NCBI GenBank assembly: GCA_963819655.1
Contig: CAWFXA010000002.1
Location: forward strand, 1,015,361 to 1,079,360
Length of the DNA stretch: 64,000 nt
Direction of reading: 5' to 3'
Source of the DNA: an uncultured Chloroflexia bacterium
GTDB taxonomy: Bacteria > Chloroflexota > Limnocylindria > Limnocylindrales > CSP1-4
Positions within the stretch are counted from its first letter, which is position 1. Every line of letters begins with the position of its first letter. The notes under the pieces are model-generated. The model had not been told where the DNA came from, made no database searches, and worked only from the letters and a program-made list of their open reading frames with translations. Shown one piece after another: positions 1 to 64,000 of this stretch. The translations under genes were made by a program, and so were the position numbers.

Positions 1-975
1 GGGGTCGATCTGGAGCAGGCCGCGGTTGGCCGTCGTGCCGCCGTGGCCGTCGCCGTACGTTTCGAGCATCGCGCCGGTGAAGTTCTCGAGGACGCCGTCC
101 ATCATCAACTTGACGCTCGTCGGCGCGTACCGCCCGATGGCCGTCGCGCGCCGCCGTTCGATGAACTCCTCGATCTGCTCGGGGCCGCGGTTGCGATCCC
201 ACCACAGCGCGCCCACGACGCGACCGGTCAGCTCGCCGCGGGCGGCCAACGTCAAATACGCGCGCTCCTCCGTGTGCGGCTCGACGATCGCATCCTGCCA
301 GGCAGTGATGCCGAACCCGTGCAGGTGCCGCTGGCCCAGGCGAAGAGCTTCCTCGAGCTCGGCGGGCGTGTTGTCTGGCAGCAGCCGGGCGACCAGGTCC
401 ATGGCGCCTTCGTGGAGCGTGCCGCTCGGGGTCCCGTCCGGGTCGCGCTCGATCCGCCCGTCAGACGGATCGAGGGTCGCTGCCGTCACGCCGGCGAGCT
501 CCAGCGCCTTCGTGTTCACCCATGCGCCGTGGCCGTCCCGGTTCGTCAGGAACACCGGGCGATCCGGGAGGATCCGATCCAAAACCTCCCGACGCGGCGT
601 GCCGCCATCGAATGCCGCCATGTACCAGCCGCCGCCGCGGATCCATGCCTCGTCCGGGTGTGACCGTGCGTATGCCTCGATGACGTCGATGTCCTTTCCG
701 GACTCCGCGTCCGCATGGAGATCGCACCGAAGCATCGCGAGACCGCCGTGGACCGGATGCACGTGGGCATCCTGGAACCCGGGCGTGACCGTTCGTCCGC
801 GAAGGTCGATGACGCGCGATCGCGGCCCGATCAGGCCCTCGACCACTCGATCGGGCCCCACCGCCACGATCCGGCCATCACGAACAGCGAGGGCGGTCGC
901 CCACGAGCGTGCCGTGTCCATCGTCGCGATGCGGCCGTCACGGAGGATGAGGTCGGCGGGCTGTTCGGTCGTCAT
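1..975 (-). CDS. Amidohydrolase-family (metal-dependent hydrolase, YtcJ-like) protein, 3'-partial (C-terminus lies beyond window start)
   Basis: Manual reverse-strand translation from ATG at 975 gives MTTEQPADLILRDGRIATMDTARSWATALAVRDGRIVAVGPDRVVEGLIGPRSRVIDLRGRTVTPGFQDAHVHPVHGG..., a typical amidohydrolase N-terminus with the HxH metal motif. It is absent from the ORF track because there is no in-window stop. Confidence 0.7.
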   Translation of the reverse strand, partial: MTTEQPADLILRDGRIATMDTARSWATALAVRDGRIVAVGPDRVVEGLIGPRSRVIDLRGRTVTPGFQDAHVHPVHGGLAMLRCDLHADAESGKDIDVIEAYARSHPDEAWIRGGGWYMAAFDGGTPRREVLDRILPDRPVFLTNRDGHGAWVNTKALELAGVTAATLDPSDGRIERDPDGTPSGTLHEGAMDLVARLLPDNTPAELEEALRLGQRHLHGFGITAWQDAIVEPHTEERAYLTLAARGELTGRVVGALWWDRNRGPEQIEEFIERRRATAIGRYAPTSVKLMMDGVLENFTGAMLETYGDGHGGTTANRGLLQIDP

Positions 976-1049
976 CAGCGGAGTCTGGCGGGTCGCGCCG
1001 TGCGCCCCGACCGCATCCCACCCGGCGCGACGGCGTAGCATCGCCGCCC

Positions 1050-1598
1050 ATGGCATCGGTCCACCTCCTCCACGCCGGCTACTCGGGCGAGCGGACGGCA
1101 TCGTCGATCGTGCTGGTGCGCGACGGTGACGCACTCATCGTCAGCGATCCGGGGATGGTCGCGCGCCGCTCGCTGATCCTCGATCCCCTGGCGGAGCTCG
1201 GGATCGATCCGGCAGCGGTGACGCACGTCTTCCTCAGCCATCACCACCCCGACCACACGATCAACGTGGCGCTCTTTCCGAACGCCGAGGTGGTCGATTT
1301 CTGGGCCCGCTACCGCGACGACCTGTGGCTCGACATGCCGGGTGACGGGTACCGCCTCTCCCCGAACGCCCAGTTGTGGCTGACCCCCGGCCACACGGCC
1401 GAGGACGCGTCGTTGATCGTCGAAGCGGACGACGGCGTCTACGCGATGACCCATCTGTGGTGGCACGCGGACCGCACTCCCGAGTTCGATCCGGTCGCCG
1501 ACGACCAGGGGGCGATCGCGGCCGGTCGCGAGCGCGTGCTGGCGGTCGCCGACGTGGTCATCCCTGGTCATGGCGGCGCTTTCCGGGTGGCCCGCTAG
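1050..1598 (+). CDS. MBL-fold metallo-hydrolase
   Basis: HHHPDH (HxHxDH) zinc-binding motif; the 182-aa length fits a beta-lactamase-fold hydrolase. Confidence 0.8.
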   Translation: MASVHLLHAGYSGERTASSIVLVRDGDALIVSDPGMVARRSLILDPLAELGIDPAAVTHVFLSHHHPDHTINVALFPNAEVVDFWARYRDDLWLDMPGDGYRLSPNAQLWLTPGHTAEDASLIVEADDGVYAMTHLWWHADRTPEFDPVADDQGAIAAGRERVLAVADVVIPGHGGAFRVAR

Positions 1599-1623
1599 GA
1601 ACCGGCGAATCGGCGAATCCAGA

Positions 1624-3920: not shown

Positions 3921-3952
3921 CGCGGCAGTGTCGCAGATAGACTCTCGGCGCT

Positions 3953-5406: not shown

Positions 5407-6597
5407 ATGCTACGGATCATCCACACCGCGGACGTCCACCTCGGCGCGCGCCACGACGACCTCGGTGAGCAGGCCAGCGCCCAACGCGAGCGCCAATTCG
5501 CCGCCTTCGCGGCCACCGTCGATCTGGCGCTGGCCGAGAAGGTCGACCTCGTCCTGATCGCCGGCGACCTGTTCGACAGCAACGTCCAGCCGCGGCGGTC
5601 GGTCGAACGCGTCGCTGCGGAGATCAAGCGGCTCGCGGGCGGCAAGATCCGGACCGTGATCGTGCCCGGGACCCACGACGCATACGACCGGTCGTCGATA
5701 TACCGCGCGTACGACCTGAAGGCCATGTCCGGAAGCACGCCGGACGACGACTGGGTGACGGTCCTGACGCCCGAGCTGCCGCGGATCCACCTGTCCGCCT
5801 GCGACGTCGTCGTTCATGGCCCCGTCTTCGCGACGAAGCGTGCGCCGCACAGCCCTCTACGCGACCTCGATGTCGCGTCCCACAAGGGCACCGCGGCGTG
5901 GCAGGTCGGCGTGCTCCACGGCTCGGTCGCGATCCCCGGCAAGACGGACCGCGACGACGTCGTCATCACGACCGACGAGATCGGTGCGAGCGGTCTCGAC
6001 TACCTCGCCCTCGGCCACTGGCATTCGGCGCGCCAAGGCAAGTCCGGCGGCGTGACCTTCGCCTATTCGGGCGCGCCAGAGCCTGTCGCGCTCAACCAGG
6101 ATCGTGCCGGCAGGGTCCTGCACGTCCAGCTCGAACAGACGGGTCCCGGGCGCAGCGTCGGCGTCACGGAGCGAGCGGTCGGCAAGACGCGTTTCGAGAA
6201 ATTGGAGCTCGATGCCGCCGGGGTGACGACCCAGCCTGCGCTGATCGACAGCCTCAAGCGCAAGGGCGATCCCGACCTGGTCCTCGACGCCCGGATCGTC
6301 GGCGTGCGCCCGGACGAGCTCGACCTCCACCCCGAGGAGATCGAGACTGCCCTCGCTCCATCGTTCCTGAAGGTGCGCGTGCGCGACCTGAGCTCGCCCG
6401 CATTGACCGAGGGAATCCTCCCGTCGCCCGACACCATCGCCGGCGCCTTCATCCGCGATCTCGAGGCGCGCATCGCCGAGCTCGAGGCGGCGCCCGCGTC
6501 CGGATCCGAGGTCGACACCGCGGTCGAGGCGGCCGAGTTGCGCGACTCGCTCCGGCTCGGCCGGCTCCTGTTGGACGGCCACGAGGTGTCCCTGTGA
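5407..6597 (+). CDS. sbcD: DNA repair exonuclease SbcD/Mre11-family (YhaO/SbcF-like metallophosphoesterase)
   Basis: N-terminal IHTADVHLG and GDLFD calcineurin-like phosphoesterase motifs; GTGA overlap with the downstream ATPase gene. Confidence 0.85.
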   Translation: MLRIIHTADVHLGARHDDLGEQASAQRERQFAAFAATVDLALAEKVDLVLIAGDLFDSNVQPRRSVERVAAEIKRLAGGKIRTVIVPGTHDAYDRSSIYRAYDLKAMSGSTPDDDWVTVLTPELPRIHLSACDVVVHGPVFATKRAPHSPLRDLDVASHKGTAAWQVGVLHGSVAIPGKTDRDDVVITTDEIGASGLDYLALGHWHSARQGKSGGVTFAYSGAPEPVALNQDRAGRVLHVQLEQTGPGRSVGVTERAVGKTRFEKLELDAAGVTTQPALIDSLKRKGDPDLVLDARIVGVRPDELDLHPEEIETALAPSFLKVRVRDLSSPALTEGILPSPDTIAGAFIRDLEARIAELEAAPASGSEVDTAVEAAELRDSLRLGRLLLDGHEVSL

Positions 6598-8805
6598 GGA
6601 TCCGCCGGCTGCAGGTGCGGGATATGCGCCGGTACCGCGAGCTCGATATCGACCTTGCCCCTGGCGTCACCGTCGTCCGCGGCCCGAACGAGGCCGGCAA
6701 GAGCACCATCCAGCGAGCCATCGAGCTCGCCCTCACCCGCCGGGTGACAAGCAACGCGGGCGACCTCGAGACCCTGCGACCGTGGGATGCCGCCGCCGAC
6801 GCACGTCCGTGGGTCTCGATCGAATTCGAGCAGGACGAGGAGGACGGGCGCACCGCGACCGGAACGCTCGAGAAGTGGTTCGGGGGCCAGAAGGGCACCG
6901 TCGATCTCGTGTACGACGGTCAGCGCGTCACCGACCCGGCGCTCGCGGACCAGGTCCTTGCCGAGCTCTCCGGCATCCCGACCGAGGCATTCTTCCGGTC
7001 GACCGCGTCGGTCCGCCATCACGAGCTGAGCGATGTCGCCCGTGACGAGGCGGCGCTCCGGGACCGGCTCCAGGCGAGCATCAGCGGCGCCGATCGCGGC
7101 ACCGGGCGCGCCAAGAAGAAGCTCGAGCGGGCGATCTTCGAGCTGACGACGAAGGGTGACAAGAACCCTGGCAGGCTCAAGGTCGCGGAGGCGACAGTCG
7201 CCCAGGCGGTGGTAGCGGTCGAGAAGGGCGAGCTCGACCTGGCCCAGCTCGAGCGCGACCGCGACACGCTGTCGGGCGCGCGCGAGCGCCGGACCGAAGC
7301 GGAGGGCGGCCTGGCGGAGCGCCGGGCCATGCTCGAGAAGGCCCGTCAGGCCGAGCGTCTCGAGGCGGAGCGAACGTCCGCTCGCGAACGGTATGAGCGC
7401 TTCCGCGAAGCGGTCGAGGTCTCGACCGAGCTCGACGAGCTCGCACAGACCCACCCCTCGCCGAACCCGTTGCCGGTGATCCGCCAGGCAGTCGAGCGTC
7501 TGCGCGTGCTCGACACCCGGATCGCGCGAGCTGCGGGCAGCGCTCGCAGGCGAGATCGACGTCAACTTCGACGTGGCCCCCGAGCCGACCTGGCGGCCGC
7601 TCTCGCGCTGGGGTCTGTTCGCCGTCCTGATCGGGGCGCTGGTGGCCGGCGGCAGCTTCGTCTTGCAGACGCTCGGGATCGTCAACCTTGGCATGGCGCC
7701 CTTGTACATCGGCGCGGCCGTGGCGCTGATCGGTGGGATCCTGAGCGCCGTCGCGCTGTGGCTGCGACGGGGCTCGTCGATGCAGGAGCAGCTCCGCGGC
7801 GACGAGATCGACCGTCGGCTGCGCGGCCGCTCGGAGATGGAGGCGGAGCTCCGCCAGGCGGAGCTCGATGCGGAGCAGCAGCTCGGGACGCTCGGCCTGG
7901 ACGACCTCGCGGCTGCCGAGGACCTCCTCGCACGCGAGGAGGCGCACGTCGCGCGGATGGACCAGATGACCGCACAGCTCGATGGGCTTGTCGGCAAGGA
8001 GCCGCGCGAGACGTTGCCGAAGCTACGCGATGCGGCGGCCCTCGAGATCGAACAGAAGACCAGCGCGCTCGATGCGCTCGGGCCGATCGCCAAGGAATCC
8101 CGGGCGCGTGAGCGCCTCGAGGTCGAGGTCCGTGACGGCGAGGCCGCGCTCGACCGCGCGCGCGACGACGAGGCCAATGCCCGCGCGCGCGTCGAGAACA
8201 ATCGCGTGGACGCGGAGGAGGTCGCGGCCGAGGCAGAGCGCCTGGCCGTCTGGCGTGAGCAGCTCGCGCTCCTGCAGCGCCGGCACCGTGTGCTCGAGAC
8301 CACCTTGCGCGCGATCGAGCGCGCCGAGACCGCGACGATGAAGACCGCCACGCGCTATCTCGAGGGCCACATGGTCCGCGACGTCGCGACCGTCACGGGC
8401 GGCCGCTATCGACGTGTGCGGGTCGACGACAAGACGCTCGACATCGACGTCCACGCCCCCGAGCGGGGCGACTGGGTGCCGGTCGGCACACTCAGCCAGG
8501 GCACGCTGGACCTCGTGTACCTGACGGCGCGCCTCGGACTGGTGCGCCTCGTGACCGGGGATCGGCGCCCGCCGCTCGTCCTCGATGACCCGTTCGTGAC
8601 GCTCGATGACGAGCGCGCGACGCGCGCCCTGGCGCTCCTGAAGCGCGTCGCAGACGACTTCCAGATCATCTATCTGACGACATCGGACCGGTACGACGGC
8701 GCGGCGCATGCCGTCGTCGAGCTGCCCGGTCCGGCCACGATCGACGACGGGGTCGCCGATCCGTCGCTCACACCGGTCGAGAGCGCGAGCGGGGCCAGAG
8801 CCTGA
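6594..8805 (+). CDS. sbcC: SbcC-like AAA/ABC-type ATPase with central transmembrane hairpin (YhaN/SbcE-like); apparent frameshift near 7530
   Basis: Walker A GPNEAGKST at the N-terminus, long coiled-coil, two hydrophobic helices (LFAVLIGALVAGGSF...LYIGAAVALIGGILSAVALWL), and C-terminal Walker B/D-loop LVLDDPFVTLDDERA. The N-terminal half reads in frame 0 and the C-terminal half in frame 1, joining around 7525-7535. Confidence 0.8.
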
Positions 8806-9668: not shown

Positions 9669-9672
9669 ACAC

Positions 9673-18038: not shown

Positions 18039-18538
18039 GCAGGGGGCTCGGCCGCCACCACACCACCCTCCGGACGCCAGCGGTAGAGGACATCCGGCTG
18101 GCGCTCCTCATTGCCGGACCCGTCCCCGAACGCGATGGGCACGAACCCATGGCTCTCGTAGAACCGACGGGCGTAGGCGTTGACCTGGAAGCAGTACAGG
18201 TCGAGTCCCTCCGGCCGGCGCGCCTTGGCGAGCGCGATGAAACGCCGGCCGAGACCGAGGCCGATCCACTCGGGGGCGACGTACAGCTGCTCCACCTTCG
18301 TGTCCGACAGCGCCATCACGGCGACGACCCGGCCGTCATCCCGCCGGTCTTCGGCGACCCATGTCTCGTGCTTCGGCACGAGCTCGGTCGCCAGCCAGCG
18401 GCGGACGTCGTCGTCGGGATGACTCGGCGGGAAGTCGAACGTGGCCCGCCAGGACGCCAGCCACACCTCGCCGATGTCGGGCGCGTCATCGACCTCTGCC
18501 CTCCGGATGACCAGTCGATCGCTCTCGGACGACGTCAC
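18035..18538 (-). CDS. GNAT-family N-acetyltransferase
   Basis: Acetyl-CoA binding pattern GLGLGRRFI. GTG start at 18538 overlaps the pgl stop; the ORF-track N-terminal extension is non-protein-like. Confidence 0.7.
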   Translation of the reverse strand: MTSSESDRLVIRRAEVDDAPDIGEVWLASWRATFDFPPSHPDDDVRRWLATELVPKHETWVAEDRRDDGRVVAVMALSDTKVEQLYVAPEWIGLGLGRRFIALAKARRPEGLDLYCFQVNAYARRFYESHGFVPIAFGDGSGNEERQPDVLYRWRPEGGVVAAEPPA

Positions 18539-19338
18539 CGGGCAAGTCGCGCCGCGGCCGCCTCGTCGAGAAGCCAGGTCGCGCCGTCGCGCAGCGCCAG
18601 CTGCGCGGGGAGCGCGGCCGGATCGACATCCGGCGCGAAGATGCGGCCGATGATGTCGGCCTTGCCGGCACCGGAGGCGACGACCAATACACGCTCGGCG
18701 ACCGCGACAACGGCCGGGTTGAGCGTCACGCGCTCCACATGCGGCTCGATGTGGGTCGGCGCCGGGATCGCCAGAGCCCACCGCTTCGATTCGAATGCCG
18801 CCGACCCGGGGAAGACCGACAGGATGTGCCCGTCACTGCCGACGCCGAGGAGGATGAGGTCGAAGACCGGCCAGCCATCGGTCTCCCGGAGGCCCGCCGC
18901 CCGAAGCTCCTCCACCAGCTCTGCCGCACAGGCCGCGGCGCTGCGGCCCTGGCCGATCGCCTCACCCGTCTGGAACGGGTGGACGTTGGCGACCGGGATC
19001 CGGACCCTGTCGCGATGGTCGTCCGAATGGACGCTCTCCCAACCGCCCGCCTCGAGGAGGATGTCGTCGAATGGCCGGACATTCGAGAGGGGGTGGTCCC
19101 CGGGCACGAACCGGTCGTCGCCCCACCAGGTGTGGACGTCACGCCATGGCATCCGGGCCCGGAGATCCGGTGTGAGCATCGCCTTGTAGATCCCGATCGG
19201 GGCGGTACCGCCGGTCGTCGCCCAGTCGGCGCGACCGCGCCGTGCGACGGCGCCGCTCAGCGTGTCCGCGATGATCGACGCGGCGCGAGCCGCGCCGGTC
19301 GCCTGATCCGGGACGACGACGACCTCTCGTCCGGTCAC
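18535..19338 (-). CDS. pgl: 6-phosphogluconolactonase
   Basis: DLILLGVGSDGHILSVFPGS motif; the ORF-track extension upstream of the GTG at 19338 is Arg/Gly-rich and non-protein-like. Confidence 0.8.
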   Translation of the reverse strand: MTGREVVVVPDQATGAARAASIIADTLSGAVARRGRADWATTGGTAPIGIYKAMLTPDLRARMPWRDVHTWWGDDRFVPGDHPLSNVRPFDDILLEAGGWESVHSDDHRDRVRIPVANVHPFQTGEAIGQGRSAAACAAELVEELRAAGLRETDGWPVFDLILLGVGSDGHILSVFPGSAAFESKRWALAIPAPTHIEPHVERVTLNPAVVAVAERVLVVASGAGKADIIGRIFAPDVDPAALPAQLALRDGATWLLDEAAAARLAR

Positions 19339-20575
19339 GAGCGGCCGCCTGCCGCCGGTGCCTCGCCGACCAGTCGCGCCGCCGTCCGTAACGTCCCGAC
19401 CGAGACCGGATCGCGGCGACCCGCCTCGATCGCCTCCGCGAGGAGGTCGACGTCCCCGCGACGGGGGGCGAGGAAGTGCCGCTCCAGCGCCTCGACGCCG
19501 TCCTGCCAGACCCGGACGTGGACCGTCTCGGCTTCGGCGGTCACGTCGGCCCGGAGCTCCGAGCCGCGACGCTCGCACAGCAGCTCGACGCGCAGCGTCG
19601 TGCCGGAGGGCATCGACGAGACGACCGGCCTGATCACCACGGACACCTCGGCTCGCCCATCGGACAGGGTGGCTGCCATCCCCCGACTCAGCGTCGGCCG
19701 GCTCGACGAGCCGGCCCGCGGCTTCGATGTGCCCTGGCCCGGTCCCGTCGCGACGGCCAGCGGCTTGACGACGTTCAGCCCGAGGCGCGACGCCAACCAG
19801 GCCACGTGGTAGACAGGTTTCACGAGGTTTGTCGTCCCGGGCGCGCCCGTCTCGTCGTGGGTCCCATACGTCACCGAGATCCGCCGAAGGGAGCGCAGGT
19901 ACGGCAGGAAGTCCGGGTCGTCGAAGATCGATGCGATCGCCTCGCGCCAGCGCGATTGGCGCATCAGGGCGAAATCGCTCACGGCCAGGTTTGCCTTTTC
20001 TGCGACCGACGCCATCTCCGCGAGCCGTGCGAGTCCGTCACCGTCCCACGTCGAGCCGTCCACGACGAGCCTGTCCGACGCCTCGAACAGGTCGATCGAC
20101 GCTTGGGATGAGAACGGCGGCTCGCCCGGCCACCAGACCGTCGTCGGCAGGTCGTGGATTATCAGCGGCGTCACGATCGCCGAGAGGTGTCGCCCGGCTT
20201 CGCCGCCCGCGATCAGGTGGATGGTCTCGGCGCACGTCTCCGGGGCGTCCTCACGCGGCAGGATGCAATGCGCCTCCACGCGCGCGTCGATCCACGACGG
20301 GCCGTCGGGATCCGCTGATTGGACGACGATCGTCCGCGACGGATGTTTGCCGGTCAGCGCCTGGATCGTGGCAGCTCCCCGTTCCGCGATCTCCGGCCGT
20401 CGCGCGATGACGACCAGGTTCATCACGCTCGATCTGGCCGCGACGTGACGGCCGGGCTTGCCCTCCATCCGGGTGGTCAGGTCCTGCCTGGCCCAGATCC
20501 TCGACAGCTCCTTCTCGATGTCGGGGATGCTCCGCGCCCGCGCCGACCAGCGCAGGACCGGCTCGTTGAGTGCGA

Positions 20576-20591
<16 letters not shown>
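19335..20591 (-). CDS. opcA: Glucose-6-phosphate dehydrogenase assembly protein OpcA
   Basis: Sits between zwf and pgl as in actinobacterial OPP operons; start at MATDLVALNE. Confidence 0.75.
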
Positions 20592-22252
<1,661 letters not shown>

Positions 22253-22292
22253 GGCTACGAAACCTCGGGCCGATGGCGTCGCGGGGCTCCGC

Positions 22293-23207
22293 TCATTCCG
22301 TCCTGACCTCGTGGCCGCCGAACTCGTTTCGCAGGGCAGCCAGCACCTTGGCCCCATACGAGTCGTCCTGTCGGGAGCGGAACCTGGTCAGGAGCGACAG
22401 CGTTATCACCGGCGCCGGGACGTCCTTGTCGATGGCCTCCTGGACCGTCCAGCGGCCCTCCCCCAAATCGGCGACCCAGCCCTTCAGGTGCTCGAGGTCC
22501 TGGCCGTTCGTCTTGAAGGCGCGAGCCGCCAGCTCGAGCAGCCACGAGCGCACGACCGAGCCCTGCATCCAGAGGTCAGAGATGGCAGCGAGGTCGAGCG
22601 TGTAGTCGCTCGCGTGCATGATCTCGAAGCCCTCGGCGTACGCCTGCATGAGGCCGTACTCGATGCCGTTGTGGACCATCTTCACGTAGTGCCCGGCGCC
22701 TGGTCCCCCGACATGGAGATAGCCGCCCGGCGGCGCCAGGGTCGTGAAGATCGGCTCGAGCGGTCGGACGGCCTCCTCGTCGCCGCCGACCATCAGGCAA
22801 TAGCCGACCTGCAGGCCCCACACCCCGCCCGATGTCCCCGCATCGACGTAATGGACGCCGTGCTCCTTCAGGGCGTCGTGGCGGCGGACGTCGTCGTGGA
22901 AGTTGGTGTTGCCCCCGTCGATGATCGTGTCGCCCGGCTCGAGGTGCTCGAGCAGCTCGGTGATCTGGGCCTCCGTGGCATCGCCCGCCGGGACCATCAC
23001 CCAGACGGCCCGCGGCTTCTCGAGCTTGGCCACCAGCTCCTCGATCGAGAAGGTCGCCTTCGCTCCGTCGCCCTCTCCCTCGATCTCCTTCGACTTCTCC
23101 GGTGTCCGGTTGTAGACCATGATCTCGTGGCCGTCGCGGACCAGGCGGCGGACCATGTTCGCGCCCATCCGACCGAGACCGATGAAGCCGAGTCGCATGT
23201 GCGTCAC
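22293..23207 (-). CDS. gnd: 6-phosphogluconate dehydrogenase (decarboxylating), short ~300-aa form
   Basis: GFIGLGRMGANM Rossmann motif; GGDEEAVRPLEPIF. Confidence 0.85.
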   Translation of the reverse strand: MTHMRLGFIGLGRMGANMVRRLVRDGHEIMVYNRTPEKSKEIEGEGDGAKATFSIEELVAKLEKPRAVWVMVPAGDATEAQITELLEHLEPGDTIIDGGNTNFHDDVRRHDALKEHGVHYVDAGTSGGVWGLQVGYCLMVGGDEEAVRPLEPIFTTLAPPGGYLHVGGPGAGHYVKMVHNGIEYGLMQAYAEGFEIMHASDYTLDLAAISDLWMQGSVVRSWLLELAARAFKTNGQDLEHLKGWVADLGEGRWTVQEAIDKDVPAPVITLSLLTRFRSRQDDSYGAKVLAALRNEFGGHEVRTE

Positions 23208-24931
23208 ACCTCCGGCAGGTTGGCGAGCGCGCCGTCGAGTGCGCGCTCAAGGGCGGCGAGCCCGGCGTCCACGTCGGCGCCGAGATGGATCCGCAGGATC
23301 GGCAGGTCGTGCGCGGCGATCGCGGCGTGATCGCCGTCGGCCTGCGCGTGGATGAGCTGGCCGAAGGTATACGGCCAGCCCGGGATCGGCCGATCGTTCG
23401 TGTGATCCGCTGTGAGCTGGAGAAACCACCCGATCGGCGGGCCGCCCTTGTGGAGTTGGCCCGTCGAATGGAGGAAACGAGGCCCATAGCCGGCCGTCGT
23501 CGCGTTGCGGGTCGCGTCACGGAGGCGGGACCGGATCCGGGTCATCGCCGCGTCGCGGTCCGACGTCGGGGCGATGAACGCCTGGACGGCAAGGTAGGCG
23601 TGCGGTACCCGCCGGCCGAGGTGATCGCGCAGCCGGTCGGCGAGATTCGCATCGGCGGCGCTCACCTCGGCGTCGTGCGACACCATGCGCTCGCCGAGAT
23701 CGGCCTTGGCGAACGCCTGGCGGGTCATCTCCTTGGACTCCTCGACATTGGGCTGGTCGAACGGGTCGATGCCGAGGACGATGCCGGCGATCGCCGTGGC
23801 CACCTCCCACCGAACGAACTCGGCGCCGAGATCGATCGGATCGGGGACCGTGATTCGGATGACCGGGTGGCCGGCCTTCTCGAGCGCGTCGGCGAGGGCG
23901 TCGCGGCCCCCGTCGGTGCCTCCCTCGAGGGCCATACGAACGATGACCCTGTCGTCACCGTAGGACTCCGGCCGGCCGAGCGGCTCGAGGTCCACAGGCA
24001 CGATCCCAACACCATGCTTGCCTGTGCTCTCGGCGATGAGCTGTTCCGCCCAGGCCCCGAAGGACGCGATGTCGTCGTCGGGCAGGAACGTCAGCTTGTC
24101 GCGGCCGGCGCGAGCCAGCGTGCCGATCGCGATCCCGAGGGACACGCCGGGGTTGGCGTCCGGATCCGGTTCCCGGCACGCGCCGAGCATCGCGCCAGCG
24201 GACGCCAGCAGCGCGTCGAGGTCCAGCCCGATCAATGACGCCGGCACCAGCCCGACGTACGACAGCGCGCTGTAGCGACCGCCGATGTCGGGTGGGTTGA
24301 GGAACACTTCCCGGAAGGCGTCGTGGTGGGGGATCGCCTCGAGGCTTTTCCCGGGATCGGTGATCGCGACGATGAAGGCGCCGGGAGTCTCGTAGACGTG
24401 GTGCTTGACCTTGTCGAGCGCCTCGCTCCCGCGATGCCAGGCCTCCGCGAGGAACGCGTTCGGCTCGACGGTCGTGCCCGACTTGCTCGCCACGATCACG
24501 AGCGTGCGAAACGGATCGAGGTCATCGAAGACGGCCCCGACGGCCTCCGGATCGGTCGAGTCGAGGATGCGCAGGGCGAGGTAGCCATCGGTCGAGCCGA
24601 ATGTCCGATGGAGGACATCCGGTGCGAGGCTGCTGCCCCCCATCCCGGCCACGACGGCGGTCGTGAGGCCGGCGTCGACCACTGCATCGCCGAACCCCTC
24701 GAGAGCCGGGATGTTGTCGATGAAGTCGATCGGGGCGTCGAGCCAGCCCAGGCGATCCGCGATGGCCGCGGCGACCGTCGGGTCGTCCGTCCACAGCGAC
24801 GTGTCGCGGTCGAACAGCCGGACGGCCCATTCGGCGTCGCGGGCGTCATCGACGACCGAGCGATACGCGGCAGCGCCGTCCCCGAGCGCGAATGTCGGGA
24901 CCTGGACGGGGGACGAGACGGGCTCGGTCAT
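23204..24931 (-). CDS. pgi: Glucose-6-phosphate isomerase
   Basis: PGI signatures DIGGRYS and IDPFDQPNVEESKE; SKSGTT motif. Start at MTEPV (24931) with a GGAGG RBS. Confidence 0.85.
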   Translation of the reverse strand: MTEPVSSPVQVPTFALGDGAAAYRSVVDDARDAEWAVRLFDRDTSLWTDDPTVAAAIADRLGWLDAPIDFIDNIPALEGFGDAVVDAGLTTAVVAGMGGSSLAPDVLHRTFGSTDGYLALRILDSTDPEAVGAVFDDLDPFRTLVIVASKSGTTVEPNAFLAEAWHRGSEALDKVKHHVYETPGAFIVAITDPGKSLEAIPHHDAFREVFLNPPDIGGRYSALSYVGLVPASLIGLDLDALLASAGAMLGACREPDPDANPGVSLGIAIGTLARAGRDKLTFLPDDDIASFGAWAEQLIAESTGKHGVGIVPVDLEPLGRPESYGDDRVIVRMALEGGTDGGRDALADALEKAGHPVIRITVPDPIDLGAEFVRWEVATAIAGIVLGIDPFDQPNVEESKEMTRQAFAKADLGERMVSHDAEVSAADANLADRLRDHLGRRVPHAYLAVQAFIAPTSDRDAAMTRIRSRLRDATRNATTAGYGPRFLHSTGQLHKGGPPIGWFLQLTADHTNDRPIPGWPYTFGQLIHAQADGDHAAIAAHDLPILRIHLGADVDAGLAALERALDGALANLPEV

Positions 24932-25010
24932 CGTGGCCTCCGAAGGATTTCCGGGGACCTGCATGGTACTTCCCTCACATCACCCCCGGCCGTGCGTCAC
25001 ACTGCGAGGG

Positions 25011-26165: not shown

Positions 26166-26624
26166 CTAGCGGCCGGCCGCCTCGATCGCCAGGACCTTGG
26201 CGAGTCGTCGCTTGTGCCGCGGCTCGCCGCTGAACGTCGCCGCGAGGAAGGCCAGCGAGCACTCGACGGCGGGCTCCGGTCCGATGACGCGGGCACCGAG
26301 CGTCAGGACGTTCATGTCGTCGTGCTCGACGCCCTGGTGGGCCGAATACGTGTCATGGCATACCGCCGACCTGATCCCGCGCATCTTGTTCGCCGCCACG
26401 CTGGCGCCGACACCCGACCCGCAGATGAGGATCCCGCGATCGGCCTCCCCGGACAGGATCGACTCGCCCAGCCGCTGGGCGAAGTCCGGGTAGTCGTCGT
26501 TCGGGTCGGAGCCGTCGCCGCCCAGGTCGATCAGCTCGTGCCCGACGCCGGCCGCCGCGATCCGCGCGATCAGCTCGTCCTTGAGCCGGGCTCCGGCGTG
26601 ATCCGCCGAGAACGCGACGCGCAT
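26166..26624 (-). CDS. rpiB: Ribose-5-phosphate isomerase B
   Basis: 152 aa: [20 protein letters not shown]...[14 protein letters not shown]; ATGA overlap with the tkt stop. Confidence 0.85.
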
Positions 26625-30488: not shown

Positions 30489-30627
30489 GGAGCCGGGGAT
30501 TCGGCTGGTCGCGGTCAGTGGGCCATCCTTGCTCGATCGATGACGGAGTGGTCGCGGTCAGGTTAGCCGGATACCCAGAGCGCATTCCGGCACTACCATC
30601 AGGCGGATGCCACGACTGCGGCCAGCC

Positions 30628-45865: not shown

Positions 45866-47660
45866 GTGGCTGCGACGGAGGAGGTCCTCGGCCAGTTCCT
45901 CGGCGACGACACGTTCCCGGTGTCATGGGATTCGGAGGTCGAGAAGGACTTCTTCTGGGTCTACGACGACCTCCACATCCCCCATCCGGTCAGCCCGATG
46001 TTCTTCGACATCGGTGGTTGGTGGCTCAGCTGCGACCACATGTTCCGCCGGTTCGGGACGCCGTTCGCGGTCGACTGGCTGGCCAAGAACGTCAACGGCT
46101 ACGTGTACACCACGGCCATTCCAGGCCGACCCTGACGTCCGCATCGAGGGCACCGAGTACAGCTCGCGCTACCAGGCACGCGTCCCGCGAGATGACACGT
46201 TCGCCACGTCGATGGGCGCCTATCTCGACACGGTCCTACCCGTCTACGGTGAGCACTTCGCCGACTGGTGGCACGACCGGCTCGTGCCCGAGATGCAACG
46301 CAACTTCGCGTACCTCGAGGAGCGCCTCGACGCCGCCGACGACATGTCGCTGGCCGAGACCGCGACCCTCCTCGAGGACGCGATCGACATCCACGACCGG
46401 CACTGGAAGATCCACTGGATGCTCAACTTCGCCCAGCTGTCGGCGACGCTGAAGCTGCGCGCGGTGATGGAGAAGACCCGTGGCTCGGTTGACGAGGAGC
46501 TATTGGGACGGCTCCAGAATTCGGCCTCGGACCGCAACTGGGACTCGATCGGGGCGCTCTGGCGGATGAAGAACGAGGTCCGCGACGAACCCGAGCTGCG
46601 GACGGCGTTCGAGCCCGACGACGTCGACCGGATCGCCGCAGCCCTCCGCGCGTCGGAGCGAGGCCGACGCTTCATCAGCGAACGCGTCGAGCCGTACCAG
46701 CGCGAATTCGGCTGGCACGCCGTGTGGAGCCACGAGTTCATCTTCCCGACGGTGCGCGAAGAGATGAGGCCGGTCCTCGAGCTGATCCGCGGCTACCTCG
46801 TCAGCGACTACGACTTCCCGAGCGCGATCGAGGCGATGCGCCGGGACATCACGGCCGCCTCGCAGGAGATCCTGAGCGGACTCGCCGGGGAGGCGCTCGA
46901 GGAGATGCGGGAGTCGAACGCGGTGAACCTCCGGATGGCGCCGCTGACGCCCGATCACCACTTCTACATCGACCAGGGCGCGAACGCCCACGTCCGGCTC
47001 GTGCTCCTGGCGGTCGGCAGGAAGCTCGTCGAATCCGGACGGCTCGATCAGCCCGACGACGTCCTGTTCCTGCGTTACAACGAGCTGCGGGCGCTCATCG
47101 GCAGCGCGGATGCGCTCGATGCCCGGACGCTCGTCTCCACGCGGCGTGCCGAGCGCGACGCCGCTCGGGAGCTCCACCCGCGGGATTGGGTCGGCACGGT
47201 CACGCCGTCGCAGCTGGCCTTCCCATACCTCGTCAATTGGGGCTATCCGGAGCGCTTCCACCGCCAGCAGTCCGACGACGAAAGCGTGATCAGCGGCATC
47301 GCGGGCTCGCCCGGCACGATCGAGGGGATCGCGCGCGTCGTCACCACGGTCGATGAGTTCGACGAGGTGCGCGACGGCGACATCCTCGTGTGCCAGATGA
47401 CGAATCCCGCGTGGGTCGTGCTGTTCACCAAGATCGCGGGGCTCGTGACCGACACCGGTGGGACGACATCGCATCCGGCCGTGCTCGCGCGGGAGTTCGG
47501 GATCCCGGCCGTCATCGGGACGTCCGTGGCGACGCGTCGGATCAAGACCGGCGACCGTCTCCGGGTCGACGGGGGCGCCGGCCGCGTCGAGATCCTCGCC
47601 GCTGAACCCGCGGCGCCAGCCGCACCCGCACCGTCAGCGGTCGAGGCGATCGGGCGTTGA
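45866..47660 (+). CDS. PEP-utilizing-enzyme family protein: large N-terminal domain of unknown function plus C-terminal phosphohistidine swivel domain, no ATP-grasp; apparent frameshift near 46125
   Basis: C-terminus GGTTSHPAVLAREFGIPAVIG (PEP-utilizers mobile-domain His). The first ~89 aa (ORF 45866..46135) are in a different frame from the rest (ORF 45774..47660). Confidence 0.7.
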
Positions 47661-47705
47661 GCGCGGCCCGGGACCAGGTGGATCGGGTCCGGTAGGGCCG
47701 GACCC

Positions 47706-48561
47706 ATGCGTGCGTTCGCCTACGAGCGGCCGAGCGAACTGGCCGAGGTCATCGGCCTGCTCGCCGATCAGGGACCGGACGTGCGCCTTCTCGCGGGCGG
47801 CACCGACCTCATCATCCGCATCCGGGACGGCTCGATCCAGCCGCGCACAGTGGTCGACGTCAAGGGCGTCGCCGAGCTGGAGCGGGGCATCCGGGAGGTC
47901 GACGGTCATCTCTCCATCGGGGCGCGGACCGTGATGACCGACCTGCTGCGCGACGAGCGCATCCGGCGTGACTACGCGGCGCTGGCAGAGGCGGCCGCCG
48001 TCGTTGGAGCAGTGCAGATCAGGAACCGGGCGACCCTGGCCGGCAACATCTGCAACGCGTCCCCGGCAGCCGACACGGCGCCCGCCCTGCTCGCATTCGG
48101 CGCGCGCGTCGTCGCGGTCGGGCCCGATGGCCACCGTGTCATCCCGCTCGACGCGTTCTTCGTGCGCTCCGGTGTCACGACGCTGGCGGCCGGCGAGCTT
48201 GTGTCCGCGATCGAGCTTCCGCTGCCGGTGACGCCGCGCGGATCTGTCCATGTCCGGCGCACGCGCCGACGAGGCCATGATCTCGCCTCGGTCACGCTGG
48301 CGTGCACGGTCGACGCCGAGGGGGTCACGCGGATCGCGTATGGCAGCCTGGGTCCGCGGCCGCTGCTCGTCGTCGACGAGACCGGCGTCCTCGCGGATCC
48401 CGCAGCGACGGACGCGGCGCGTGAAGCACGACTCGCTGAGCTGTTCTCCGACGCGGCACCGTCGCCGACGATCGATGCGGGCGAGCCCCGAGTACCGCCT
48501 CGCGATGCTTCGGGTCCTGGGGCTGCGCGCGGTTCGCAGGACCATCGAGCGGCTGGCATGA
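47706..48561 (+). CDS. Xanthine-dehydrogenase-family FAD-binding subunit (CoxM/XdhB-like); apparent frameshift near 48475
   Basis: LLAGGTDLI FAD-binding motif. The true C-terminus ASPEYRLAMLRVLGLRAVRRTIERLA is in another frame (ORF 48250..48561), with an ATGA overlap to the next gene. Confidence 0.75.
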
Positions 48562-49114
48562 CCACCCGCCGCATCGAGCTCACCGTCAACGGGCGCGCCC
48601 GAGCGGTCGACGTCCAGCCGCACCACACGCTGCTCGAGGTCCTCCGCGACGACCTCGGCCTCACGGGCACGAAAGAGTGCTGCCTGGTTGGGGAGTGCGG
48701 CGCCTGTACGGTCCTGGTCGACGATGTGAGCGTCGATTCGTGCCTGATGCTCGGCGTCGAGGCGGACGGCGCGTCGATCACGACGGTCGAAGGGCTCGCC
48801 CTCGGCGACCGGCTGCATCCGCTCCAGCAGGCATTCCTCGACACGGGCGCGGCCCAGTGCGGCTTCTGCATCCCTGGTCAGCTCCTGTCCGCGGCCGCGT
48901 TACTGGCAGAGATCCCGCACCCGACTCGCCCCGAGATCGAGGAGGGGCTTGCCGGCAACCTGTGCCGCTGCGCTGGCTACGAGCAGATCATCGAAGCGGT
49001 TGCAGCCGCGGCCACGCCGGCGACCGAAGCGGCGCTTCGCGAGCACGCCACGCTGGGCTCCCTGCGGTCGGCGACCGCGCGTCGACGCCGGATGCGGAGC
49101 TTGCACCGCAATGA
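48559..49114 (+). CDS. Xanthine-dehydrogenase-family (2Fe-2S)-binding subunit (CoxS-like); C-terminus uncertain
   Basis: CxxGxCGACTV and CGFCIPG...CRCAGY cysteine motifs. The reading frame runs past the coxL start; a shift into the frame ending at the ATGA overlap at 49111-49114 would restore a normal length. Confidence 0.7.
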
Positions 49115-51355
49115 CGGTCGTCGGCAGCTCACCGGCGCGGGTCGGCGGGGTGGATCGCGTGACCGGCCGACAGGCGTATGTCGCCGACATCCACATCGAG
49201 GACACCCTCCACGTGAAGCTCGTGACGCTCGACGTGGCTCGCGCGCGGATCGGCTCGATCGACACGAGTGCGGCACGTGACGTCCCGGGCGTCCGCCTCG
49301 TCATGACGGCCGCGGACCTGCCCAAGCCGATGCCGCGATTCGGTCCGCAACGGCGCGACCGGCCGGTCCTCGCGGTCGACGAGACCAAGTACCACGGCGA
49401 CCCCGTGGCCGCAGTGGCCGCCGACTCCCGGGATGCCGCCGAGGAGGCAGCCCGCCTCGTGCGGGTCGAGTTCGAGGAGCTGCCCGCCCTCCACACACTC
49501 GCCGCGGCGCTCGCGCCAGACGCGCCCCTTGTGCAGGATCCCGCACTGCGCCCGAACGATCCCCAGGCCGAGACCAACGTGCTCCACGAACACCGCCACA
49601 GCTGGGGCGACCTTGACGCCGCCGAACGCGAGGCGGAGATCGTGGTCGAGGGCACGTACACGTTCCCGATGGTCACCCAGTTCGCGATCGAGCCGCACGC
49701 GTTCATGGCCGCCCCGGACGGCGATGGCATCGCCATCTGGAGCGCGATCCAGCACCCGAACTGGCTGCAGCGCGTCATCGGCGAGCTCCTAGGTCTGCCC
49801 CTCGCCAAGGTGCGCGTCCACGCGCCCGACCCGGGCGGCGCATTCGGGGGCAAGCAGCACGCGAAGTACGAGCCGCTGCTGGCGTTCATGGCGCTCGCCA
49901 CCGGCCGGCCGGTCAAGCTGGTTCTATCGCTCGAGGAGACGTTCCAGGCGGTCCGCCGTGGCGCGGCCGAGGTCCACGTCCGAACCGGTTTCCGACGCGA
50001 CGGCACGCTCGTCTTCCGCGACCTCGAGGCGAACTACCTGATCGGTGCCTACGCCGACATCGCGGACCGGACCGTGGCGAAGGGCAGCTACACCTCGATG
50101 GGTCCGTACCGCTGTCCGGCGGTCCGGATCGTCGCCCGCAGCGTGCTGTCGCACACCGTGCCGTCCACCGCGTTCCGTGGGTTCGGCAATCCCCAGCAGA
50201 TCTGGGCGGTCGAGTCGAACATGAACGAGGCGGCGCGGGCGCTCGGCATCGATCCGCTTGAGCTGCGGTTGCGCAACCTGGCAGGTCCCGGCGAGACGTT
50301 CATCCCCGGCGACACGCCGGCCGATGGCGACTGGGCGGTCGCGGTGCGACGGGCGGCCGAGATGATCGGCTGGGACTCGCCGCTGCCGGCGGGTCGAGGC
50401 CGAGGTCTCGCGCTCGGCTTGAAATCGGGGCCGACCACCGGCCTGTCGTATTCGACCGTCAGGCTGCTGGTCGATGGCAGCGTCGTCGTCTACGCCGGCA
50501 CGTCCGACATGGGGCAGGGCGCGCGGACGATCTTCGCCCAGATCGCCGCCGACGAGCTCGGCGCGCCGCTCGAGTGGGTGAAGGTCGTCTCGGGCGACAC
50601 GGCGGTCGTGCCGTACGACCAGCAGACCTCGGCCAGTCGGTCGTCGGTGTTCATGGGGAACGCGGTGCTGCGCGCCTGCCAGGACATCCAGGCCAAGGTC
50701 CGGTCGATGGCGGCGCGGCTGGAGTCGGTCGATGCGGCGGAGGTCACCGTGGAGCGCGGCGAGGTACGAATCGGCGATCGCAGTGCTCTCGATCCGCGAT
50801 GTCGTCCGGCGCGGCCTCGGTCGACTCGGTGGCGAGCTCATCGGCGTCGGTGAGATGCGCAAGGACGCCGAGCCCGACCATCCGCTCGGCGGCACCGCGG
50901 CGTTCTACGAGTTCAACGCGACGGCGGTCGAGGTCGAGGTCGATCGCGACACCGGCGATATCACGATCCCGAGGTATGTGACGGTGTCGGACGTCGGCAA
51001 GGCGCTGAATCCGCTGCAGGTCCGCGGCCAGGACGAGGGTGCCGCGGTGATGGGACTCGGGCACACGCTGATGGAGCACTACATCTGGGACGACGAGGGC
51101 CGGATCCGGAACCTCGGCGCCATCGACTACCGGATCCCGACGTCGATGGACCTGCCGCTCGAGATGGCGAGCGACATGGTCGAGAACGCCGACGGGCCCG
51201 GACCGTATGGCGCGAAGGGGATGAGCGAAGGGGCGCTCCTCCCGGTCGCTCCGGCCGTGGCCGCGGCGGTGCGCGACGCGACCGGTGTCTCGATCCGGGA
51301 CCTGCCGTTGACGCCGGAGCGGGTCTGGCGCGCGCTCCAGGATGCCGGCGAATGA
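49111..51355 (+). CDS. Xanthine-dehydrogenase-family molybdopterin-binding large subunit (CoxL-like); apparent frameshift near 50775
   Basis: N-terminal VGGVDRVTGRQAYVADI, GGAFGGK, and C-terminal Moco-domain motifs. The last ~195 aa are in a different frame (ORF 50732..51355). The stop overlaps the next gene as ATGA. Confidence 0.8.
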
Positions 51356-55705: not shown

Positions 55706-55810
55706 GCGGCCTCCTTCCGAAGTTCGAGCGTAGTGGCGCCCCCATCGTCGCGTCAAAACGCGAGTCCGGGCGTGCGGCCCCGTCGGCAGGCTCGGCGTAC
55801 GATCGCGTTG

Positions 55811-56527: not shown

Positions 56528-56579
56528 AAAACCATTACCGCCCACGTTCTGAACGACTGACGTCACCACGGAGAGGGGC

Positions 56580-62160: not shown

Positions 62161-62912
62161 CCGGGTCGCTCGCGGATCGCGTCGTGCTCGTGACCGGCAG
62201 CAGCCGGGGCATCGGCGCGGAGGTCGCGGTGAAGGCCGCCGCCGAAGGCGCGATCGTCGCCGTCCACTACCACCGCTCCGCGGATGCCGCGCAGCGGACC
62301 CTCGAACGCGTCCGCGCGGCCGGGGCGGAGGGTGACTGCTTCCCCGCGGACATCGCGGACGGCGGCCAGGCCGAGCGGCTCGTCGAACAGGTCATCGACC
62401 GGTTCGGGCGTGTCGACGGCCTGGTCAACAACGCCGGGCTCACCCAGGTGGGGCCGTTTCTCGAGATCGAGGCGGCCGAATGGGAGGAGATCATCCGGAC
62501 CGATCTGACGGCCGCGTTCCATACCTCTCGCGCCGTCCTGCCATCGATGCTTGAGCGCGGCGACGGGGCCATCGTCAACATCGCGTCGCGGCTCGCGCAG
62601 ATGGGCATCGCCGAGACCGCCGCATACAGCGCGGCAAAGGCCGGGCTGCTGGGTTTGACCCGGTCGCTCGCCCGCGAGTTCGGGCCGCGCGGGATCCGGA
62701 TCAACGCCGTCGCCCCGGGGGTCACGATCACCGAGATGACGACCGACCTCGTCGACAGTGAGGCGGGCAAGCAGCGGCTGCGCGACATGGCGCTCGGGCG
62801 GTTCGGCCGCGCCGAGGAGGTGGCCGAGGCGGTCGTCTTCCTGTTGTCCGACCGCGCGAGCCTGTTCCTCGGCCAGACGCTCAACCCCAACGCCGGGGGC
62901 TACATGCCGTGA
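62157..62912 (+). CDS. SDR-family oxidoreductase
   Basis: VLVTGSSRGIG and YSAAKAG motifs; likely TTG start overlapping the LacI stop. Confidence 0.8.
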   Translation: MTGSLADRVVLVTGSSRGIGAEVAVKAAAEGAIVAVHYHRSADAAQRTLERVRAAGAEGDCFPADIADGGQAERLVEQVIDRFGRVDGLVNNAGLTQVGPFLEIEAAEWEEIIRTDLTAAFHTSRAVLPSMLERGDGAIVNIASRLAQMGIAETAAYSAAKAGLLGLTRSLAREFGPRGIRINAVAPGVTITEMTTDLVDSEAGKQRLRDMALGRFGRAEEVAEAVVFLLSDRASLFLGQTLNPNAGGYMP

Positions 62913-63086
62913 GCAAGACCGCTGCCGCCGGCCGAATGCAGCAGATCGCCGCGCAGGTGGATCCGGCGCAAGGCGCCAACGAGCACGGGAGCGAGCGCAT
63001 CTGGATGATGCGTGAGCGAGCGCGCGCAGGCGGCAACGCGGCGACGGGTCCGCATCCGCGAGCGAGATGCAAATGGAGGTCGGCGG

Positions 63087-64000
63087 GTGCGGGCTAAGGT
63101 CCTGGACGTTCGTGATGCGGTCGCGCTGGTTCGTGACGGGAGCACGCTGCTGATCGGCGGGTCCGGTGCCGGCCACGCCGTCCCGCAGCGATTCATCGAC
63201 GAGCTCGCTGCGGTCTTCACCGCCGAAGGCAGGCCACGCGACCTGACGACGGTCCGCATCGTGGGCATCGGCGACTTCGCCGACCGCGGTTTCTCGCAGC
63301 TCGGCCTGCCCGGGCTGATGCGCCGCACGATCGGCAGCAACATCGGCAACGAGCCGCGGCTCGGTGCGCTGGTCGAGGCGAACGAGATCGAGTCGTATTC
63401 GTTCCCGCAGGGCGTGCTCTCGCAGCTCGTCCGCGAGATCGCCGCGGGTCGGCCGGGGCTCGTCACGCACGTCGGGCTGGGCACGTATGTGGACCCGCGC
63501 CAGACCGGTGGCAAGCAGAATGCCCGAACGACCGAGGATCTCGTCGAGGTGGTCACCCTGCGGGGTCGGGAGTGGCTCCTGTTCCACGCATTCCCGATCG
63601 ACGTCGCGGTCATCCGCGGCACGACCGCCGACGAGGACGGCAACCTCACGATGGAGGGCGAGGCCCTCCAGGGCGAGATGCTGGCGATGGCAATGGCCGC
63701 GCGGAACAGTGGCGGCATCGTCATCGCCCAGGTCCGGCGCCTGGCGCGTCGGGGCAGCTTGTCGATGCGCGACGTGAAGGTGCCGGGAGCGCTGGTCGAC
63801 CACGTGTTCGTCGACCCGGACCAGTGGCAGACCTACATCACCCAGGACTCGCCGTACTACGCGGGCGCGCTGCGCAAGCCCGTCACCGACGAGCCGCCAG
63901 CGCCGCTCGACGTCCGCAAGATCATCGCCCGGCGCTCCCTGCTCGAATTCCGGCGCGGGGCCATCTGCAACCTCGGGTTCGGCATCAGCCAGCTCATCGG
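63087..64000 (+). CDS. CoA-transferase family I protein (acyl-CoA:acetate/3-ketoacid CoA-transferase-like), 3'-partial
   Basis: GTG start after a GGAGG RBS; LLIGGSGAGHAVPQRFIDEL and SENGxxG-like region; continues beyond the window end. Confidence 0.7.
   Translation, partial: MRAKVLDVRDAVALVRDGSTLLIGGSGAGHAVPQRFIDELAAVFTAEGRPRDLTTVRIVGIGDFADRGFSQLGLPGLMRRTIGSNIGNEPRLGALVEANEIESYSFPQGVLSQLVREIAAGRPGLVTHVGLGTYVDPRQTGGKQNARTTEDLVEVVTLRGREWLLFHAFPIDVAVIRGTTADEDGNLTMEGEALQGEMLAMAMAARNSGGIVIAQVRRLARRGSLSMRDVKVPGALVDHVFVDPDQWQTYITQDSPYYAGALRKPVTDEPPAPLDVRKIIARRSLLEFRRGAICNLGFGISQLI

Follow-up and report, generated by a model that had tools for sequence, protein, structure and literature searches.

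Single-base frameshifts in eight conserved genes of a Limnocylindrales-like Chloroflexota contig are probably consensus errors of a long-read assembly

Introduction

Does the 64-kb stretch of DNA analysed here (the window) carry conserved genes that its host is beginning to lose, or genes that are intact in the organism and broken only in its assembled sequence? Nine frame-breaking sites are spread over eight conserved genes, including transketolase, and each of these genes has one or two 1-nt indels. We propose that the frameshifts are, with high probability, consensus (polishing) errors in a metagenome-assembled genome (MAG) built from long reads and belonging to a Limnocylindrales-like soil member of the Chloroflexota, and that the genes of the real organism are intact. 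A previous sequence-only reading had already suggested uncorrected long-read or homopolymer indel errors without genome decay. Its attribution to assembly error stands, as the lesions occur in the window alone, consist of 1-nt changes only, lie in genes under unrelaxed selection, and recur as a type in Nanopore-only and long-read-style relatives. The homopolymer slips that it invoked, however, give way to clustered lesions that are mostly single-base insertions outside homopolymers.

Results

Continuation of each gene in another frame was established by three-frame translation, by Pfam and NCBIfam profiles matching in complementary halves, and by tblastn with intact orthologues, and the lesions were placed by base-level alignment to close relatives. 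Every frame break listed in the sequence-only reading was present, within about 25 nt of where it had been put. If the gene for a major facilitator superfamily (MFS) transporter is counted with two −1 changes, there are ten individual lesions, and all ten are 1-nt indels. Seven of the nine sites are single-base insertions in mixed sequence context, with A or T inserted in four of these seven. The junctions had been described as short G/C runs, yet no site lies within a homopolymer of at least 4 nt, and the longest adjoining run is the CCC beside 26835. Eight of the nine lesions fall inside two 5-kb windows (P ~0.002, a post-hoc statistic).

A reference-free GC3-periodicity HMM scan, which recovers larger breaks, found no additional frame breaks in the 64 kb. 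Frame changes near 54923, 59560, 16895, 18043/18545, and 37005/37197 are ordinary gene boundaries with stop/start overlaps, as judged from stop positions and the gene calls of relatives. The more divergent alignments also contained paired +1/−1 gaps, for example at 33961/33968, 48228/48233, 48314/48325, and 48419/48430; these were discounted as natural variation that compensates itself or as artefacts of alignment. Nothing relevant came from scanning the window for Rfam families, tRNAs, and tandem repeats.

The transketolase gene tkt (26624..28764, minus strand) contains two extra bases, at 27123 (sense CGT[C]GAC, extra base bracketed) and 26835 (sense GGC[T]CCC), and is consequently read in three frames. 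Deletion of one base at each site yields a 712-aa protein that is 96% identical to the intact 713-aa Tkt of the short-read-style MAG L001, including the C-terminal tail. In the window as assembled, an open frame joins the Tkt C-terminus to RpiB. The adjacent gene for an MFS transporter fused to a cNMP-binding domain (28859..30500, minus strand) has two separate −1 changes at 29828 and 29835, 7 nt apart (net −2); its two MFS_1 halves and cNMP_binding domain are spread over two frames, and the L001 counterpart is an intact 543-aa ORF. A PfkB-family, ribokinase-like sugar kinase gene (30607..31567, plus strand) has one extra base at 31026 (CGC[G]CGG, plus strand), which puts PfkB profile positions 3-118 and 172-292 in different frames, and L001 again has an intact ORF, of 319 aa. 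Downstream of tkt, Pfam matches identify an intact pentose-phosphate set (rpiB, pgi, gnd, zwf, opcA, pgl; 18538..26621, minus strand) with no frame-breaking indels relative to L001 and dN/dS of 0.05-0.2. The intactness that the sequence-only reading had noted for neighbouring genes holds for pyrG, tal, zwf, gnd, pgi, opcA, pgl, rpiB, the peptidases, and PPDK.

A YhaN/SbcC-like AAA ATPase gene adjoining sbcD (6594..8805, plus strand) changes from frame +2 to +0 at one extra C at 7523 (GGAT[C]GCGCG). Its first part matches the Pfam N-terminal ATPase domain and its second part the SMC_N/Walker B region; full-length relatives have 724 aa with LDTRIRELRA uninterrupted across the junction, and the single extra base is seen in alignment to L164. 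In the gene for a PEP-utilising (Rph/PEP-synthase-like) enzyme (45866..47660, plus strand), one extra A lies at 46123 (TTCC[A]GGCC). The intact L083 orthologue has 597 aa, and as a tblastn query it is split into frames 2 and 3 at 46125-46132.

All three subunit genes of the following molybdoenzyme operon are hit. The gene 'coxM' (47706..48561, plus strand), for the FAD-binding medium subunit of a xanthine-dehydrogenase-family enzyme, has one extra A at 48470 (GACG[A]TCG). Its NCBIfam match ends at profile position 228 of 289, and the uncorrected frame continues into the next gene, giving an apparent CoxM-CoxS fusion. Without the extra A, translation proceeds through APSPTSMRASPEYRLAMLRVLGLRA to a stop and the C-terminus is exactly restored, as in L082 and L083. 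The gene 'coxS' (48558..49117, plus strand), for the 2Fe-2S small subunit, shows a net −1 somewhere in 49016-49045, within a variable linker (net gaps −1 relative to L082 and −4 relative to L083). This break had been listed only as possible. The last 21 conserved residues, HAGLPAVGDRASTPDAELAPQ before the stop, are identical to those of L082 and sit in frame +1, with the gene body in frame +2, and this confirms the break. The gene 'coxL' (49111..51355, plus strand), for the molybdopterin-binding large subunit, has one extra A at 50782 (ATCGC[A]GTG). Its NCBIfam profile positions 1-563 and 609-756 fall in two frames; relatives have 753 aa, and P0004, the database entry for the window's own protein, is truncated to 543 aa.

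The name CoxMSL, i.e., aerobic CO dehydrogenase (CODH), given to this operon in the sequence-only reading is a loose one. Neither active-site loop of CODH, AYXCSFR of form I or AYRGAGR of form II, occurs in large-subunit residues 1-551. The best NCBIfam score of the large subunit is 332 bits for an XdhA-type model (cut-off 780), and the CODH models score 183-229 bits, below their cut-offs of 950-991. Judged by these matches, the 'coxMSL' genes are best called putative xanthine-dehydrogenase-family subunits.

Each of the nine sites is found in the window alone when it is compared with L001, L082, L083, and L164, and the tkt lesions are private in comparison with 72 relatives; orthologues are single-frame at every site. 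In the alignment to L001 (92% nucleotide identity over 20.9 kb), uncompensated genic indels of a length other than a multiple of three are confined to the five at 26835-31026. Those seen against L082 and L083 are limited to 46123, 48470, ~49030, and 50782, and against L164 the lesion is that at 7523. Among JGI metagenome contigs, scanned for a nearly identical strain, nothing came closer than 91% amino acid identity.

This privacy bears on the proposal that the shifts are decoded, i.e., that full-length products are recovered through programmed +1 ribosomal frameshifting or transcriptional slippage. The direction of the shifts is in its favor, as seven of the nine sites need +1 and the net −2 of the MFS gene is equivalent to +1. 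A recoding site would be conserved, however, and since no relative is frameshifted at any of the sites, decoding is effectively refuted and its probability negligible. The 'coxS' shift, moreover, is −1, the sites share no slippery motif, common context, or A/T run for slippage, and the insertion bias of the window appears equally across sister contigs, intergenic DNA included. A common sequence or methylation motif was sought at the seven insertion sites, with nothing convincing in a set too small to judge. Two of the insertions create GATC and three create CpG.

Genuine, very recent mutations would mean early decay or relaxed selection at two loci, with loss of transketolase, a sugar kinase, an MFS transporter, a PEP-utilising enzyme, a three-subunit molybdoenzyme, and a YhaN-like ATPase. 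The distribution of the lesions lends itself to this proposal: they lie in two loci, in adjacent and possibly co-transcribed genes, and strike every subunit of one enzyme, as in decay of a dispensable operon, which counts against an origin in error. The site contexts, not being the homopolymers of textbook Nanopore error, count in the same direction. A second tkt locus exists in some relatives (L030 and L031 are from one MAG), so that a paralogue could in principle substitute for tkt.

The kind of lesion and the state of the flanking sequence nevertheless make such mutations highly improbable. In genuinely decaying genomes, frameshifts occur alongside nonsense codons, deletions, and insertions of mobile elements, and dN/dS rises. 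In the window, all ten lesions are 1-nt indels, alignments to relatives show no nonsense codon, larger deletion, or insertion element in the affected genes, and tblastn found no in-frame stops in 23 relatives' matching reading frames. On both sides of every shift, dN/dS is 0.05-0.2 per segment, the same as in intact neighbors, which upholds the claim of the sequence-only reading that conservation persists across the shifts without accumulation of stops. A relative-rate test of Tkt gave five residue changes unique to the window and five unique to L001, with equal identity to five outgroups, i.e., no acceleration; two independent indels in a single gene without excess substitutions are unexpected under neutral drift. 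The remainder of the pentose-phosphate operon is intact, and the lesion type follows long-read assemblies, not lineages. The chance that at least some lesions are real and fixed, namely the three hits in the molybdoenzyme operon plus its PEP-utilising neighbor, or the double hit in tkt, appears similarly slight. If true, a free-living soil member of the Limnocylindrales would have been caught at the onset of losing a molybdoenzyme operon or an operon-encoded transketolase, before substitutional decay became visible.

The same type of lesion occurs in other long-read or long-read-style assemblies. Frame-broken tkt was found in two of the 72 relatives (L007 and L026), both Microflora Danica (MFD) MAGs and both with +1 non-homopolymer insertions, and in none of the 59 relatives outside the Nanopore-only MFD MAGs. 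The MFD-LR catalogue was assembled from Nanopore data only with Flye and one round of Medaka, without short-read polishing (PMC12313526). Two sister long ENA contigs show the same preponderance of insertions per ~20 kb, with 27 single-base insertions versus 5 deletions in L081 and 33 versus 13 in L164; 22 of the 27 and 23 of the 33 insertions have no identical neighboring base. These indels are at positions unlike those of the window and split other genes, and the insertion bias extends into intergenic DNA. Two observations count against the error reading here. The inserted bases of the sister contigs are mostly C/G, with a CpG-creating bias, versus A/T in four of seven in the window; and a DUF8091 gene of the short-read-style L082 has a 1-nt deletion of its own, so that short-read-style assemblies are not lesion-free. 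As to the origin of the window itself, P0004 and P0121, which are 100% identical to window proteins, are encoded on a single 1,792,136-bp contig, and this 1.79-Mb length implies that the window would derive from a long-read assembly.

Discussion

Consensus error could have produced the observed pattern as follows. At modest read depth, the assembler or polisher may leave spurious single bases, and more rarely drop one, in GC-rich sequence outside homopolymers. Since both depth and read quality would vary at the scale of a read length (a few kb), the residual errors would remain in local clusters. Gene callers then output truncated or split proteins, as the public protein entries from the window's contig show: they are truncated at the same points, with 543 versus 753 aa and 410 versus 724 aa.

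A possible, although rather unlikely, variant is that the consensus is a mosaic of collapsed strains, with indels where the polisher averaged divergent haplotypes and not from raw read error. The kb-scale clustering of the sites is consistent with such averaging, as are the two deletions in the MFS gene, which are 7 nt apart and beside a substitution, and the identity to the DASTIG MAG, which shifts between the two loci (92% versus 83.5%). Synonymous divergence around the sites is ordinary, however, and the alignments examined contain no mosaic blocks. Collapse of strains is, in any case, a sub-type of assembly artefact and not a true alternative to it.

The main value of these findings is a quality flag, as annotation would show eight genes, transketolase among them, as truncated, split, or fused. 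Metabolic reconstruction from this MAG would then mistakenly conclude that the non-oxidative pentose-phosphate branch and a molybdoenzyme have been lost. In these long-read assemblies of Chloroflexota with 70% GC, residual errors are mostly single-base insertions outside homopolymers, in kb-scale clusters. Homopolymer-aware fixes and coding-density screens will therefore miss such errors; frameshift-aware annotation or polishing with short or HiFi reads is needed for such assemblies.

With decaying genomes of the Mycobacterium leprae type, the window shares a large number of frameshifted conserved genes over a short distance and repeated hits in one operon, but it differs from them in having no nonsense codons, deletions, mobile elements, or raised dN/dS. 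Programmed frameshifting of the prfB type likewise requires a frame change in the +1 direction, whereas the shifts of the window are unconserved in orthologues, have no slippery site or stimulatory element, and affect many unrelated genes. The literature on errors in Nanopore-only MAGs emphasizes homopolymer-associated indels and low-GC, low-coverage MAGs (PMC12313526; PMC9262707), unlike the window with its 70% GC and mainly insertions outside homopolymers. It is by lesion signature that the window resembles the Nanopore-only (Flye and Medaka) MAGs of the Microflora Danica catalogue: a very long contig with isolated 1-nt gene splits and conserved protein sequence on their flanks (PMC12313526; PMC9262707).

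Single-base frame breaks in the window

Because the genome is GC-rich, open reading frame lists were uninformative, and the whole window was instead scanned for third-position GC periodicity and then segmented by a 7-state Viterbi procedure that penalised stop codons. Same-strand frame changes without a coincident stop codon were placed at about 7523, 26820, 27126, 29826, 31033, 46119 and 50765; 47714-49111 was read as one single frame, and all remaining transitions were normal gene boundaries. Each affected gene continues in another frame, as seen in three-frame translations, Pfam and NCBIfam matches to complementary profile parts, and tblastn with intact orthologues.

Alignments to four relatives' loci (L001, L082, L083, L164) located the lesions at base level. 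The YhaN/SbcC-like ATPase gene carries an extra C at 7523 (GGAT[C]GCG), tkt has extra bases at 27123 (sense CGT[C]GAC) and 26835 (sense GGC[T]CCC), the MFS-cNMP transporter gene has two separate 1-nt deletions (29828 and 29835), the pfkB kinase gene an extra base at 31026, and the gene for a PEP-utilising enzyme an extra A at 46123. Further lesions affect the genes for the FAD-binding subunit (extra A at 48470), the 2Fe-2S subunit (net -1 in a variable linker, 49016-49045) and the Mo-binding subunit (extra A at 50782) of one enzyme. Relatives encode the intact proteins: YhaN-like ATPase (724 aa), Tkt (713 aa), MFS-cNMP (543 aa), PfkB (319 aa), PEP-utilising enzyme (597 aa), and CoxM-, CoxS- and CoxL-like subunits (284, 186 and 753 aa). 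All nine sites in eight genes proposed by the sequence-only reading were thus recovered by the combined evidence, including the coxS tail shift that it had called possible: the conserved final 21 residues match L082 exactly and sit in the other frame. No further frame-break sites were found in the periodicity/Viterbi scan of the window. The proposal that the junctions lie at short G/C runs did not hold, as no site is within a run of at least four, no run adjoining a site is longer than the CCC beside 26835, and the inserted base is A or T at four of the seven insertion sites.

Two open frames appear fusion-like, with the Tkt C-terminal domain continuing into RpiB (26166-27392, minus strand) and the CoxM-like into the CoxS-like subunit (47706-49277, plus strand). 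Both are by-products of the indels; in relatives these are separate genes with ATGA stop/start overlaps.

Comparison with relatives

GC content is 70% across the window, and the nearest relatives of the transketolase fragment are MAGs labelled Candidatus Limnocylindrales or Chloroflexota. The best of these, L001 (DASTIG010000010.1, a k141-named, short-read-style MAG; 97% protein identity), aligns to window positions 17855-38776 in one 20.9-kb block at 92.0% nucleotide identity. Against it, only five intragenic indels, all between 26835 and 31026, are uncompensated and of a length not divisible by three; the remaining gaps have lengths divisible by three, fall between genes, or form a compensated -1/+1 pair. 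This pair, 7 nt apart in an S9 peptidase gene (33961-33968), restores the frame after two codons and resembles natural variation or an artefact of alignment rather than a break. Across about 38-60.6 kb, L082 and L083 likewise reveal no such indels besides the window's listed sites. L164 reads through the 7523 site; the same gene is broken further upstream in L164.

The short-read-style MAG contig L082 (DASTIG010000094.1) has its own 1-nt deletion within 9402-10114 (window ~55800-56500), opposite window position 56087, which splits a DUF8091 gene into 130 and 109 aa; the gene is whole (238 aa) in the window and L083. Lesions in this lineage thus also occur in short-read-style assemblies. The DASTIG MAG (GCA_035717785.1) diverges unevenly from the window, with 92% nucleotide identity in the pentose-phosphate region (17855-38776) and 83-85% in the molybdoenzyme region (47111-60619), possibly through recombination, mis-binning or different selective regimes.

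Other features of the affected loci

The name coxMSL proposed for 47706-51355 proved loose. The large subunit lacks the CODH active-site loop and, among NCBIfam models, matches xanthine-dehydrogenase-type ones best, with scores far below cut-off; across these genes the best matches are xanthine dehydrogenase or 4-hydroxybenzoyl-CoA reductase-type models, all sub-cut-off. PEP-utilising/PPDK-like genes flank them on both sides (45866-47660 and 51352-53460), an arrangement kept in L082 and L083.

The YhaN/SbcC-like ATPase has a mid-protein hydrophobic, transmembrane-looking stretch (7620-7740; LFAVLIGALVAGGSFVLQTLGIVNLGMAPLYIGAAVALIGGILSAVALWL) that is kept in the 724-aa relatives and is unusual for SbcC proper. 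About 1 kb at 11109-12086 is without coding periodicity, contains short tandem repeats at 11601-11682 and 11885-11959 (periods 38 and 19) and has a higher indel content than any other part of the alignment to L164; Rfam and tRNA scans of it gave no matches.

Assembly error, mutation or recoding

Nei-Gojobori dN/dS, calculated per segment in its own frame, is 0.05-0.2 upstream and downstream of every shift and equal in intact neighbours. For none of the 23 relatives' reading frames with a match in the window was an in-frame stop seen there. Tkt has five unique residue changes in the window and five in L001 (polarised with five outgroups), with equal outgroup identities. Removal of two bases from tkt yields a 712-aa Tkt that is 96% identical to the L001 protein along its entire length, unusual C-terminal tail included. 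The gene heads an otherwise intact, selected pentose-phosphate set (rpiB, pgi, gnd, zwf, opcA, pgl), with tal elsewhere in the window, a context that argues against tkt loss.

Database proteins 100% identical to the window's products are truncated (P0004, 543 versus 753 aa in relatives; P0121, 410 versus 724 aa), hence the frameshifts are present in the public assembly. Both are encoded on one 1,792,136-bp contig (NCBI and ENA), a size that implies a long-read assembly.

Similar lesions occur in Nanopore-only MAGs and in long contigs of relatives. Among 72 relatives, 70 read tkt in one frame; the two broken copies (L007, L026) belong to the Microflora Danica (MFD) catalogue, which contributes 13 of the loci, and all 59 loci from outside it are unbroken. 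Both breaks are +1 insertions outside homopolymers, one being GGG[A]TTC. That catalogue was built from Nanopore data alone, with Flye for assembly and a single Medaka round for polishing (PMC12313526). In two long ENA contigs from close relatives, single-base insertions number about 1.3-1.8 per kb and lie mostly outside homopolymers. When L081 (174 kb; ERZ25039531 contig_5644) is compared with the intact JGI contig L083, 21 kb contain 27 such insertions and five deletions; when L164 (706 kb; ERZ25039504 contig_31891) is compared with the window, 19 kb contain 33 and 13. No identical base adjoins 22/27 and 23/33 of these insertions, respectively, and 35 of the 60 create a CpG with a neighbouring base (32% expected from composition). 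As a result many genes are split, including amidohydrolase (three pieces), CorA, CoxM-like, PPDK and GMC oxidoreductase genes, at positions other than the window's. Lesions in the window are of the same kind at roughly eight-fold lower density.

Genuine recent mutation, at the main sites at least, would accord with the presence of eight of the nine lesions within two 5-kb windows (simulated P ~0.002, for a statistic picked post hoc) and with damage to all three subunits of one enzyme, which resembles operon decay. Such kilobase-scale clustering would, however, also be expected if consensus quality tracked the few long reads over a region, and error density in L081 is also uneven, its dense patches being separated by 3-5 kb free of errors. 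Decay is defined by relaxed selection and a mixed lesion spectrum; no relaxation is seen here and the spectrum consists exclusively of 1-nt indels. Genuine mutation is very improbable. The directional bias (+1 at seven of nine sites) could also suggest recoding by programmed frameshifting, but insertion-biased error explains it better, because no orthologue has any of the shifts and no slippery motif is present.

The frameshifts are therefore very probably an assembly artefact, as the sequence-only reading had proposed in preference to genome decay: the lesions are private, of a long-read-linked type that recurs in MFD MAGs and long ENA contigs, and without signs of decay or relaxed selection, and the pentose-phosphate set is intact. 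Consequently, any interpretation of this genome should assume that tkt and the other seven genes are intact. From programmed frameshifting the window differs in both defining properties, conservation and a slippery site. Its lesions match the known class of indel errors left behind in MAGs built from long reads only, with one departure from textbook long-read error in that they are non-homopolymer insertions in high-GC DNA.
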